A stretch of 27,731 nt of DNA, taken from assembly GCA_044507735.1 (NCBI GenBank), contig JBIQJB010000025.1:1-27731 (forward strand), given 5' to 3'. The notes beneath the pieces were generated by a model. It worked only from the letters and a program-made list of their open reading frames with translations, made no database searches and was not told the DNA's origin. Shown piece after piece: positions 6,290 through 9,558 of this stretch; position 1 is the stretch's first letter, and each line of letters begins with the position of its first letter. This DNA comes from Nitrosopumilales archaeon. GTDB taxonomy: Archaea > Thermoproteota > Nitrososphaeria > Nitrososphaerales > Nitrososphaeraceae. Position numbers and translations under genes: made by a program.

Positions 6290-6414
6290 CTCTGCGTCTA
6301 GTTGAACGACACTTGTCTATATCCTTACTGGCCACAGAGGCGATGGTCATGGTATATTCTCATGGACCATGACTTCACAGAGTATTTTAGGTAACGTTGC
6401 GCAATAATACTCGA

Positions 6415-6615
6415 ATGCATGAGTTCCTCTCACCGCTGGAACCAAGATACAGACAGTGCAGGTGGTGCGACAAGAGATCACCTCACATTTGCTCCAGGTG
6501 CGGGTCTTGCTACTCGTGCCATCCGAAGGTTGAGAGCGTTGAGAGAAAGAGGGTGCCTGCAAACATCAGCATGGACCAGCTGACCGACATTGAGAACCTC
6601 CCCCTCTCGGACTAG
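6415..6615 (+). CDS. Small Cys-rich zinc-finger protein
   Basis: CRWC-x7-CSRCGSCYSCH. ATG 6415 is preferred over TTG 6397. Confidence 0.7.
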   Translation: MHEFLSPLEPRYRQCRWCDKRSPHICSRCGSCYSCHPKVESVERKRVPANISMDQLTDIENLPLSD

Positions 6616-6657
6616 AGCCGCAGTGGTTATATCAAGGCGCGCGAAGCTTGGCGATGT

Positions 6658-8544
6658 TTGAAGTATTTTGTGGGTTGCTCAGGCTGGAGGTATGGAAGCT
6701 GGGTGCCTGCATTTTATCCAAGCACTCTGCTGCCGCAAGATTACCTTTCTTACTATTCGCGCATATTTGACATGGCAGCTGTCAGCATCCAGATGCGACC
6801 TGGCAACAAAAATATGCTCAAACGGTGGGCGAAGGAGACACCCGAGGCCTTCAGGTTCATAGTCAGGATACCACACCAAGCGGCTACCGAGCCCAGGATA
6901 CTTGGACAATTTCTGGAGGCCCTGGCGCCTATAGAGGAAAAGACACTTGCAGTGGTGGTGCCGGTGCGGCCACAGCTGACTCTGCTGGAAGGCAGAGAGT
7001 GGCTGGAAGAGATTCTTGCCACATGTGTATACCATGGATATTCTGCAGTGGTAGAGTTTGCCAGCAGAAACTGGTCGCAGGACATCACCTACAACATCCT
7101 GCGCAGGCACGGAGCGGCAGTCTTGTGGTCAAACAGGTACTATTCTGATCCAGTAATTACTTCTGACTTTGCCTGTCTTCACCTGTCTTCCAGAGGCAAT
7201 GACAACAACAACTATGACGATGAAGCATGGATTGGAAAAATAAAAGAGCTGGCAGATGGACGAGAGAACCTGGAATTCGCTAGCATAATAGTGGACAGTC
7301 CGGATAGGGCGAACAGAGTGCTAAAGATGCTTGGCATGCAGGAAAGGAAATATGCCTTTCCAACACCGACGCCGTTTTTTTCATCGGAGGAAAAATGGTC
7401 CGGCAGGGTCGTCATGTGCGTGGACCTTAACGCCTTCTACCCATCATGCGAGGAACTTCGAGAGCCGGCCCTGGCAGGCAAGCCGCACGCAGTGATAATG
7501 ACTGACCAGAAGGACAAGATAACAAAGGGCGTTGTCTCTTCCTGCTCGTACGAGGCAAGAAAGTTTGGGGTCCAGTCGGCCATGCCTCTAGCAAGGGCCC
7601 TTGCTCTATGCCCACACCTCATCCTACGCCCGGTGGACATGCCGTACTACCAGCAAGTGTCGGCAAAAGTGATGGGAGTGCTTGAGCAGTTTGCAGACGT
7701 GCTGGAGCAGGCAAGCATCGACGAGGCTTTCCTGGACTGCACAAGCGCGGGGGCGGCAGACCCCTTTGGACATGCGGCCCAGATAAAGGCCGCAGTAAGG
7801 GAGCAGTGCGGCCTCAAAGTATCTGTTGGCGTGGCGGGATCAAAATCGATAGCAAAAATTGCGTGTGATTACAAGAAGCCAGATGGGCTCACAGTAGTGC
7901 ACCCACTGAAGATGCGCGACTTTCTCGCCGGACTTGAAGTCTGGAGGATATCAGGTATCGGCCCCAAGACGCAGCAGAATCTGAAAAAGATCGGTGTTGA
8001 GACCATAGGGCAGCTTGCAGCGTGCGACGTGCAAAAGCTGAAGGACATGTTTGGGAAAAAGGGGCTCTGGATGTGGAAGGTCGCAAACGGCTCAGACGAC
8101 GAGTCGGTCGAGCCCAGGGAAGACCACGTCTCGCTCAGTACCGAGCATACCCTGGATGAACCTACGAAGGACAGAGACAGAATACTTGAGGGTCTAAACG
8201 ATCTGGTGGAAGACATTCATGACAGGGTTGTCCGAAACGGCTACATGTTTCGGACCGTCGGCATCAAGCTCATGAGGTCCGACTTTTCGATAGAGACTAG
8301 AGAGACATCGTTCCCCGAGCCGCAAACAGGGCTCCAAGCCATCGCGTCGATGATCGAGCCTCTGCTCAACAAGTTTTCCCTTGATGACCGCGCGCTGGCC
8401 ATAAGGAAGGTCGGCCTGCGGGTTGCAAATCTATCATCCTTGAATAAAGAGGAAGCGAGCCGCCAGCCCAGTGCACAAAAAACCATCCTGGACTATTTAC
8501 CATCATCCGTGCCCATGCGCGATCTGAGTTCACAGGACCCCTGA
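6658..8544 (+). CDS. dinB: DNA polymerase IV (Y family) with fused N-terminal DUF72/YecE domain
   Basis: Residues 1-~225 carry DUF72 motifs (VGCSGWRY, FYP, LSYYSRIF, WAKETP..FRF, VEF...W). From ~247: VDLNAFY, SYEAR, SIDEAFLD, KKPDG, GIGPKT and a little-finger domain. PIP-box-like QKTILDYL at the C-terminus. TTATAT at 6627-6632. Confidence 0.95.
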   Translation: MKYFVGCSGWRYGSWVPAFYPSTLLPQDYLSYYSRIFDMAAVSIQMRPGNKNMLKRWAKETPEAFRFIVRIPHQAATEPRILGQFLEALAPIEEKTLAVVVPVRPQLTLLEGREWLEEILATCVYHGYSAVVEFASRNWSQDITYNILRRHGAAVLWSNRYYSDPVITSDFACLHLSSRGNDNNNYDDEAWIGKIKELADGRENLEFASIIVDSPDRANRVLKMLGMQERKYAFPTPTPFFSSEEKWSGRVVMCVDLNAFYPSCEELREPALAGKPHAVIMTDQKDKITKGVVSSCSYEARKFGVQSAMPLARALALCPHLILRPVDMPYYQQVSAKVMGVLEQFADVLEQASIDEAFLDCTSAGAADPFGHAAQIKAAVREQCGLKVSVGVAGSKSIAKIACDYKKPDGLTVVHPLKMRDFLAGLEVWRISGIGPKTQQNLKKIGVETIGQLAACDVQKLKDMFGKKGLWMWKVANGSDDESVEPREDHVSLSTEHTLDEPTKDRDRILEGLNDLVEDIHDRVVRNGYMFRTVGIKLMRSDFSIETRETSFPEPQTGLQAIASMIEPLLNKFSLDDRALAIRKVGLRVANLSSLNKEEASRQPSAQKTILDYLPSSVPMRDLSSQDP

Positions 8545-8730
8545 CCCACATCTTCCTGTCCTGTTTCATCACCACATGGTGGGAGGAGAGCGATGATTCC
8601 TGCACCCCCTGCTTCAGATCAACGTGTCGCCCATGAGGCACCCGTTCCATGACAGAAGCAGCGATGACGATAATAGAGTCGGCAACCTGTTGATTTAATA
8701 ATGATGGCATGATATTTTAAATCGCGTTAA

Positions 8731-9558
8731 ATGCGCTGCGATTTTTGCGACAACGACGAGGTCATCCCATTCAAATGCCGGTACTGCGAAGGAACATTTT
8801 GCTCATCCCACAGGCTTCCACCAAACCACAGCTGCATATTTCTGGATGATTTTTTGAAGCAGCCTGCAAGAGACAAAGAATTTCTCAGACACATTCAGGA
8901 GAGAGCGGGCATGCCACACGAGCGCGTAAAATCTGCAATCTACGACGTCATATACCTCAGGTTCTCAAAGGTAGAAGTCCTCCACCTCGCCGTGGCGACC
9001 GCTCTAGTGGCTGCAGTCGGCCTGTCGTTCACAGGATACAATCTCCGGTGGGGCACTCTTGCGATATTTGTTAGCGCATTTCTGGTGCACGAACTTGCCC
9101 ACAAGTTCCTAGCACAATTCTACAAGGCGTGGTCGGAGTTTAGGCTTCTGCTCTACGGCGCGGTGCTTACTGCATTTTCGGCCCTGCCTATCCTCCCACT
9201 AAAGTTCATTGCGCCCGGTGTAGTCTGGCACAGCGGCAACCTGAGCATGGGACGCAGCGGAAGAGTCTCATGGATTGGGCCGCTCTCCAACTTGGCGATG
9301 GGCAGCGGCTTTCTCCTTGCCTATCTTGTGCTTGCAGCACTCGATTCGCAAAACCCAATCCTGCTCACAGGCGTATGGTTCAACGGGTTCATTGCTTTCT
9401 TCAACATGATACCTTTCATGGGACTGGACGGCCAAAAGATCTTTGCATGGAACAAGTTGGTGTGGATCCTGACCTTTGCGGCTGCTATCGGGCTTTTCGT
9501 GGGTGGGGACCTCATCGGTGGAGGAACCAGGTTTGGATTTTTCCGCAGGTTCTTTTAG
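8731..9558 (+). CDS. Site-2 protease (M50) with N-terminal AN1-type zinc finger
   Basis: AN1 finger CDFC...PFKCRYCEGTFCSSHRLPPNHSC, plus HELAH and FNMIPFMGLDG (NxxPxxxxDG) in TM segments. Confidence 0.9.
   Translation: MRCDFCDNDEVIPFKCRYCEGTFCSSHRLPPNHSCIFLDDFLKQPARDKEFLRHIQERAGMPHERVKSAIYDVIYLRFSKVEVLHLAVATALVAAVGLSFTGYNLRWGTLAIFVSAFLVHELAHKFLAQFYKAWSEFRLLLYGAVLTAFSALPILPLKFIAPGVVWHSGNLSMGRSGRVSWIGPLSNLAMGSGFLLAYLVLAALDSQNPILLTGVWFNGFIAFFNMIPFMGLDGQKIFAWNKLVWILTFAAAIGLFVGGDLIGGGTRFGFFRRFF

Follow-up and report, generated by a model that had tools for sequence, protein, structure and literature searches.

We analysed a 27,731-nt stretch of DNA (hereafter the window), contig JBIQJB010000025.1 of the Nitrosopumilales archaeon assembly GCA_044507735.1 (family Nitrososphaeraceae), and in it a gene at 6658..8544 of the forward strand in which a barrel domain of the DUF72 family is joined to a DNA polymerase IV of the DinB type. 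The gene is a single 628-aa open reading frame (ORF) with a TTG start and no internal stops, and has the following parts.

6627..6632, + strand: TATA-like box ttatat, read from the sequence, 26-31 nt 5' of the start codon.
6658..6660, + strand: TTG start codon, the first start 3' of an in-frame stop at 6613.
6658..7332, + strand: divergent DUF72 TIM-barrel domain, residues 1-225 (Pfam, AlphaFold2 model, fold searches, dN/dS).
7333..7404, + strand: Pro/Thr-rich flexible linker, residues 226-249 (low model confidence, lowest identity).
7420..7869, + strand: Y-family palm/fingers (IMS), residues 255-404 (Pfam PF00817, E 8.5e-43, 146.2 bits).
7423-7425 and 7720-7725, + strand: D256 and D355/E356 (alignment to solved Dbh/Dpo4 chains).
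7945..8097, + strand: helix-hairpin-helix thumb, residues 430-480 (Pfam HHH_5 / IMS_HHH_1, E ~8e-06).
8131..8466, + strand: little finger (IMS_C), residues 492-603 (PF11799, E 1.5e-17, 64.4 bits).
8476..8499, + strand: putative PCNA-binding peptide QKTILDYL, residues 607-614, resembling a PCNA-interacting peptide (PIP) box (conservation).
8542..8544, + strand: stop codon (ORF reading).

DUF72 (YecE) is a widespread family with three crystal structures. An earlier note, made from the DNA letters alone, had described the gene as a fusion of a degenerate DUF72 domain, a Pro/Thr linker and a complete DinB, a composition that is upheld by the ORF, the Pfam matches, the homologues and the confidence of the models (predicted local distance difference test, pLDDT). 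PF01904 matches residues 20-223 with an E-value of 1.2e-21 and 78.2 bits against a cut-off of 25.3, covering profile positions 1-210 of 217 (81.5 bits in a whole-genome scan). The AlphaFold2 model of the isolated barrel has a pLDDT of 92.4 and is matched by Foldseek to the DUF72 structure 1vpq (TM 0.79, E 1.4e-13), and by VIA to 1vpq (Z 23.1, root-mean-square deviation 2.5 over 220 residues) and 1vpy (Z 22.3), the next-best VIA matches being xylose-isomerase-like TIM barrels with Z of ~13-14. Endonuclease IV chains reach Z 12.3-13.3 in VIA, a general likeness of fold that they share with many sugar isomerases; no UVDE chain was among the 50 rows listed in either fold search, which leaves relatedness possible. 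In the full-length model both domains are confident, but the predicted template modelling score (pTM) is only 0.51 and linker residues 233-243 fall below a pLDDT of 50, suggesting that the two domains sit on a flexible tether. The linker also has the lowest identity among relatives of any part of the protein (12-74%).

The polymerase part scores 277.7 against a cut-off of 256 with the NCBIfam DinB equivalog PRK02406 (NF002677). The helix-hairpin-helix models fall just below their cut-offs (26.6-26.7 versus 27), but the region is covered by alignments to solved Pol IV chains. In these alignments D256, D355 and E356 coincide with D7, D105 and E106 of a solved Dbh-type chain, and Y261 with F12; in line with the established roles in Dpo4 and Dbh we take the first three to be the catalytic carboxylates and Y261 to be the steric gate. 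None of 60 fused homologues departs from D256, D355, E356 or K400, and the earlier statement that the catalytic carboxylates are intact thus holds. N258 (7429-7431) replaces the second Asp of the D-x-D motif (D9 of Dbh); Asn is nearly invariant at this position in the family's fused-type clade, in fused and unfused members alike, whereas the DinB proteins encoded in operons with duf72 (see below) retain Asp, with two exceptions (L107 and L121). The protein shares only 33-35% identity with the plain DinB paralogue found in this genome and genus.

PIP boxes, which bind PCNA, have the consensus Qxx[ILM]xx[FY][FYLW] near the C-terminus. In the candidate box QKTILDYL, residues Q607, T609 and D612 each reach a conservation of 90% or more across the 60 fused homologues, and the full-length model places a short helix at 610-613 inside a disordered tail. 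Two independent sequencing runs (X2 and X16) have C>A at 8504, which creates a stop at codon 616, so that the protein ends at residue 615 and the PIP-like box lies at its very C-terminus; the 13-residue tail beyond the box is therefore strain-specific, and compared with the other strains it is present in the window's protein alone.

The fusion is a genuine gene and not an assembly artefact, because independent assemblies carry the domain junction without indels. An 18.6-kb contig from another study spans 6300-8800 with seven substitutions and no insertion or deletion, and a contig from a third study bridges the junction. In a word-indexed search all but four of the 120 best protein clusters, the four being short and probably partial, contain both PF01904 and PF00817; their sources are Nitrososphaera or Nitrososphaeraceae proteins called 'DNA polymerase IV', including that of the cultured N. 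viennensis at 56% identity. Among 201 sampled genomes of the class, only the window's own family gives full-length matches; a large sister family (114 genomes) has just plain DinB of ~370 aa. Of 151 genomes sampled from the window's family, 71, in 14 of its 18 genera, have a frame that holds both parts, as tallied from the listed loci with L061 added; one of the 71 (G263) is unpublished. All 35 fused loci that were fetched have uninterrupted frames of 597-743 aa which cover query residues 1 to ~614; flags for stops inside the matches were discounted, since in these loci the stops fall past the end of the frame. Two proteins that looked like stand-alone barrels of the fused type (P0122, 240 aa, and P0123, 232 aa) were rejected as such: each ends in sequence that matches the middle of full-length fused proteins, and we take both for fragments cut off at contig ends. 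In one genus (g2; L013-L016) the fused genes have an extra insertion of ~45-80 residues in the palm/fingers, between query residues 363 and 371, which gives frames of 667-745 aa.

The start of the gene is usually placed too far downstream. The gene-caller version of the protein (P0002, 590 aa) begins at M39 and is too short, because the N-terminal peptide LKYFVGCSGW that it loses is the first barrel strand of DUF72. In all 35 fused relatives the alignment with this peptide begins at residue 1; 31 of them have a TTG there or one to two codons earlier and three an ATG, one being unclear. Boxes of the type gttata or gttaaa lie at an equal distance from the start in relatives of the same genus; the position of the TATA-like box, which presumably serves as a promoter element, suggests that the transcript has little or no leader and a weak UUG start. 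An internal ATG (7336, M227), from which the polymerase might have been translated alone, is shared by the window with just its closest relative; the others carry L.

The barrel evolves faster than the polymerase (31-77% versus 51-85% identity to the 35 relatives) but is under purifying selection. Neutrality is excluded, judging from the coding sequences, because the ratio of nonsynonymous to synonymous substitution (dN/dS) of the barrel is far below 1 in nearly all pairs: by the Nei-Gojobori method 10 of 12 pairs fall at 0.09-0.26, and of the other two one gives 0.41 and the other 0.88, the latter being a pair of nearly identical sequences with a dS of 0.02. Inside the window's subclade it is 0.09-0.21, and the polymerase part gives 0.04-0.31; these are rough values, with dS near saturation in the deeper pairs. 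The N-terminal part, for which the earlier note had considered neutral evolution together with an internal start such as that at 7336, is thus not neutral, and the alternative start that follows it is not conserved.

Free-standing relatives of the two domains suggest where the fusion came from. At 4 of 4 loci fetched from two related families (f4 and f6), the dinB nearest to the fused polymerase is preceded, on its own strand and at a distance of 8-15 nt, by a canonical DUF72 gene. We then took the 80 best-scoring loci from a search of species-representative genomes with an alignment of the operon DUF72 proteins; dinB follows on the same strand at 48 of these 80 canonical loci, related genomes among them not being independent, and in 43 of the 48 the polymerase domain begins less than 100 nt after the DUF72 stop. 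The operon dinB start codons lie 7-14 nt past the duf72 stop or overlap it. As labelled in the records, the taxa with the operon are non-ammonia-oxidising Nitrososphaerales, Bathyarchaeia, Thermoplasmata, Methanomassiliicoccales, 'Methanobacteriota' metagenome-assembled genomes and one Acidobacteriota metagenome-assembled genome. Because dinB stands directly downstream at 48 of the best 80 canonical loci, the fusion descends from an old duf72-dinB operon. The earlier note had taken two separate genes in relatives as a sign against the fusion; such a state does exist in distant families, but not in the window's family, and as the ancestral operon it supports a functional link between the two proteins rather than refuting the fusion. 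The link between DUF72 and translesion synthesis proposed there is in fact much stronger than was supposed, given that the operon recurs across archaeal phyla.

Two of the operon loci stand apart. The tight duf72-dinB pair of the Acidobacteriota genome (L118, labelled Candidatus Acidoferrum sp.) is arranged as in archaea and could be due to horizontal transfer or a binning error. In a Methanomassiliicoccales locus (L117:1488-4118) the dinB that follows duf72 extends ~500 residues past the little finger, with no Pfam match in the extension.

Within Nitrososphaeraceae itself, dinB was found downstream of none of the free-standing DUF72 genes of the family's type (0 of 14 loci with at least 600 nt of downstream sequence, assigned to the family by record label). 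In a tree of polymerases (72 rows) the family's fused-type polymerases form one clade with a support of 100 in the Shimodaira-Hasegawa-like approximate likelihood ratio test (SH-aLRT), and their sister (SH-aLRT 99) is a group of polymerases from three related families, made up of the operon polymerases and the f5 clade. In a tree of DUF72 (82 rows) the fused barrels form a group with SH-aLRT 100, and together with 17 free-standing Nitrososphaeraceae DUF72 proteins, among them the paralogue on contig C17 of the window's genome, a clade of SH-aLRT 100 from which the operon proteins are excluded. The simplest history would be a duf72-dinB operon, followed by duplication of duf72 in the stem of the family, after which one copy fused to dinB and diverged while the other stayed canonical. 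Unfused orthologues with frames of 381-409 aa are nested among the fused ones within the family clade, and no DUF72 frame was found within ~1.5-2 kb upstream of them in the 16 loci checked. Two of the loci (L058 and L059) retain just the last ~40 residues of the barrel, and two (L057 and L060) are split by frameshifts.

The free DUF72 proteins carry a further sign of their possible place of action. Among the 78 complete C-termini from the best 80 loci, 51 have Qxx[ILMV]xx[FYW] within the last 14 residues, a further 19 have the short variant Qx[ST][LIM][FL]G, and eight have neither; the same pattern is found in only 19 of 1431 internal 14-residue windows. In a more diverse set (95 representatives from an exhaustive search) the tail pattern occurs in 19 of 95, as against 11 of 1683 internal windows and at most 4 in 1000 shuffles of the tails. 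The free archaeal DUF72 proteins of the sampled group thus appear almost all to end in a PIP-like, putative clamp-binding peptide. The fused barrel lacks such a peptide and has the Pro/Thr linker at the equivalent place, the fused protein ending instead in its own QKTILDYL.

We compared the 36 fused barrels with a motif profile of 93 canonical DUF72 proteins, in which a position counts as conserved when at least 80% of the 93 agree. The departures from consensus listed in the earlier note were confirmed: VEinstFY reads AAVS-IQM in the window, KlpreiTH reads RIPHQAAT, QlPP reads PVRP, vEfRHesW reads VEFASRNW, YvRlHG reads CLHLSS, and fnn falls in a gapped IVDS region. The conserved polar positions are distributed as follows.

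H of iTH: replaced in 36/36 fused barrels; lost in the window.
R of EfR: replaced in 36/36 fused barrels; A135 in the window.
E of VEiD: retained in 27/36 fused barrels; A41 in the window.
K of KxP: K or R in 32/36 fused barrels; R70 in the window.
Q of QlPP: Q in 13 and E in 11 of 36 fused barrels; P102 in the window.
E of vEfR: E or D in 33/36 fused barrels; E133 in the window.
R of YvR: retained in 30/36 fused barrels; H175 in the window.

The NNH motif is something else (for instance VDS or ADS) in those fused rows that were inspected, as read from the alignments without a tally, and is VDS in the window. From the polar set of the family the window's barrel retains just R70 (in place of K) and E133, with A41, P102, A135, S136, H175 and VDS elsewhere, and among the fused barrels it is this copy that has shed most of the family-conserved polar residues. 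The degeneracy is, on these alignments, uneven: some losses are clade-wide and others are limited to the window's five-member subclade, E41 being gone in the window and its four closest relatives and P102 and H175 being additional in the window. Pfam DUF72 scores are 41-82 bits for the fused barrels and 182-204 for canonical proteins. The fused clade has gained highly conserved motifs of its own, among them YHGYS and SW(F/Y)QDLTYN. Thus, the window's barrel is DUF72 by homology and fold but presumably not a typical, active member, and the inactivity suggested earlier is plausible for a copy that appears to be without most of the family's conserved polar residues.

Besides the fusion, the genome has a plain DinB as its second such polymerase, on contig 22, and three free DUF72 genes of canonical type (188-219 bits); the contigs with repair or DUF72 genes are C29, C22, C17, C40 and C45. 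The genome, 97% complete, has an nfo gene (281 bits), whereas no UvdE or Xth was found in it; speculatively, the canonical DUF72 paralogues might fill a UVDE-like role. DUF72 itself was present in nine of the 14 genomes used as controls, E. coli and Sulfolobus among them. Expression is low in the cultured relative, for which a supplementary transcriptome table lists values of 5.4 and 5.0 for the corresponding gene, dbh1, versus 9.4 and 11.3 for its neighbours. A 211-nt RNA-seq contig over 6664-6874 was discounted as evidence of transcription, since DNA can occur in such libraries.

Contrary to what the earlier note had implied, the architecture is not new: it is already annotated in supplement tables as dbh1 of N. 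viennensis. The dbh1 cluster P0060 (612 aa, PF01904 + PF00817) aligns over 98% of the query at 56% identity; according to these tables N. viennensis also has, like the window's genome, a plain DinB (dbh2) and a free DUF72. The window's protein differs from the N. viennensis type in having A41, P102 and H175 where those relatives keep E, a Q/R-type residue and R. In full-text literature searches we found no analysis of the dbh1-type fused gene in the main texts that they covered. Nor, among the matches listed (30 of 98 for DUF72 and 15 of 68 for YecE, while broader searches, a weak check, listed 20 and 15 of about 1,700-1,900) and with bioRxiv supplements outside their reach, did we find a published analysis of the fusion, of the duf72-dinB operon or of DUF72 PIP boxes, and among the matches listed for YecE there were only phage-integration-site and unrelated uses. 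What we did not find in print, and what our alignments and trees suggest, is the operon origin, the PIP-like tails of DUF72, the sister relation and residue losses of the fused barrels, and the repeated loss of the barrel. The N. evergladensis 'DNA polymerase IV' was rejected as a relative, being a family X enzyme.

With Dpo4, Dbh and bacterial DinB the fused protein shares the four polymerase domains, the D/D/E carboxylates, the steric-gate aromatic residue and a C-terminal clamp-binding-like peptide; unlike them it has a 245-residue N-terminal extension of DUF72 barrel and linker, and N258 in place of Dbh D9. With canonical DUF72/YecE proteins (1VPQ, 1VPY, 1ZTV) it shares the TIM-barrel fold, the N-terminal GCSGW...FYP strand and the scaffold motifs, but its barrel lacks several polar residues and the C-terminal clamp-binding-like peptide, and is joined covalently to the polymerase. 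The duf72-dinB operon of non-ammonia-oxidising Nitrososphaerales, Bathyarchaeia and Thermoplasmata encodes the same two proteins in the same order, but as two polypeptides and with a canonical DUF72 that has its own PIP-like peptide. To endonuclease IV chains the window's barrel shows a general likeness of fold only, and we do not file it as a member of the endonuclease IV / UVDE group. A 2025 study, the nearest paper found, reports DUF72 genes to be enriched near archaeal polB2 operons and the DUF72 fold to be related to UV-damage endonuclease (PMC11791011). That association likewise sets DUF72 beside a damage-tolerance polymerase; it differs, as described there, in that the partner is the B-family PolB2 and the relation is one of neighbourhood enrichment, with no fusion (PMC11791011).

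We interpret the gene, with a probability of about 0.55, as a DUF72-fused DinB/Pol IV of the dbh1 type, that is, an active, PCNA-tethered translesion polymerase with a non-catalytic DUF72 accessory module, descended from an operon. In this scheme duf72 would have been duplicated in the Nitrososphaeraceae stem; one copy would have remained free, canonical and PIP-tailed, and the other would have fused to dinB, shedding its own PIP tail and several conserved polar residues. The polymerase part, tethered to PCNA, would carry out translesion synthesis or fill gaps. In the window's subclade at least, the fused barrel would no longer catalyse the ancestral DUF72 reaction but may keep, as a tethered accessory module, the ancestral contact with DNA or a partner, and could thereby target or restrain the polymerase at the substrate processed by the free DUF72 enzymes. 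The conserved weak TTG start may hold the error-prone enzyme at a low level.

Several points weigh against this interpretation. We know of no measured activity for any DUF72 protein, and we infer the 'catalytic' status of its polar residues. Most fused barrels beyond the window's subclade retain E, K/R, E/D and R, and may be enzymes. The full-length model predicts no fixed contact between barrel and polymerase. The trees are quick IQ-TREE searches with SH-aLRT support alone, and the stem of the fused barrels is long (1.16 changes per site). Moreover, the barrel was lost repeatedly in the family, well-supported branches forcing at least five changes of the 'unfused' label, and is therefore dispensable in some lineages. 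For Tm1631 a 2013 modelling paper proposes a phosphate site on the C-terminal face, formed by Tyr/His/Arg/Glu/Arg (PMC3828134), and the residues lost here fit that proposed site by residue type, not by a numbered mapping (PMC3828134). Finally, in the tables of an N. viennensis proteome dbh1 is in the annotation list but missing from the quantified intensity rows (PMC12542715); the absence of a low-abundance protein from such a table proves nothing.

The strongest competitor, which we consider unlikely though far from negligible, is a bifunctional enzyme, whose barrel would still process DNA with a remodelled active site, for example by nicking it or cleaning its ends, and whose polymerase would fill in, by analogy with UVDE- or EndoIV-started repair followed by synthesis. 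Strong purifying selection on the barrel, its clade-specific motifs YHGYS and SW(F/Y)QDLTYN and the canonical residues that most fused barrels retain are all consistent with this, as are the intact fold (pLDDT 92, Z 23 to DUF72 structures), its nearness to endonuclease IV among TIM barrels (Z 12.3-13.3) and the failure to find UvdE and Xth in the 97%-complete genome. However, none of the 36 fused barrels retains H of iTH or R of EfR, NNH is altered in the rows seen, and the window's subclade misses three further conserved residues; in addition, a canonical PIP-tailed DUF72 paralogue in the same genomes could provide the activity, and a standard nfo gene is present.

It is quite improbable that the barrel is a decaying passenger, a functionless remnant of the fusion that is slow to be removed or whose removal would disturb expression, the protein being in effect a plain DinB. 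The family does show repeated loss, truncation (L058, L059) and frameshift splits (L057, L060), conserved residues have been lost progressively and furthest in the window, and the barrel evolves faster than the polymerase. Yet its dN/dS is far below 1 in nearly all pairs, the window's subclade included, it remains recognisable and confidently foldable where the polymerase part is only 51% identical, and the clade-specific motifs are conserved.

That the two domains are not one protein, by an assembly or sequencing artefact, a lost stop, or translation of the polymerase alone from an internal start such as ATG 7336, is very improbable and already largely refuted: gene callers differ on the start (P0002), distant relatives have two genes and the fused N. 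viennensis protein is unquantified in that one proteome table, but assemblies from other studies carry the junction without indels, 35 relatives have uninterrupted fused frames, M227 is restricted to the window and its closest relative, and the barrel is selected in frame.

Beyond the gene itself, the part that deserves follow-up is the link between DUF72, the sliding clamp and DinB. Three independent lines of sequence evidence agree, namely the gene fusion, the tight cross-phylum operon and the clamp-binding-like tail, and together they suggest that DUF72 acts on DNA at the sliding clamp beside a translesion polymerase. We tentatively propose, while holding it somewhat more doubtful than not, that archaeal DUF72 proteins are clamp-tethered DNA-damage-processing partners of a distinct DinB lineage, the fusion being a Rosetta-stone form with a non-catalytic duplicated copy. 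If true, this would define a two-gene module over several archaeal phyla that processes a lesion or blocked end and then synthesises across it, and would provide a first function for the DUF72 family, structurally solved since 2004. In soil ammonia-oxidising archaea, the fusion would point to a DNA-repair job for the family, and these organisms would have a lineage-specific second predicted translesion polymerase whose start codon is usually mis-called.

A 72-aa Cys-rich ORF at 6397-6615 (+), with a CxxC...CxxC pattern and no Pfam match, ends 42 nt 5' of the fused gene in the same reading frame. The downstream gene at 8731-9558 (+) encodes an AN1 zinc finger (E 7e-11) and a membrane part that weakly resembles peptidase M50.

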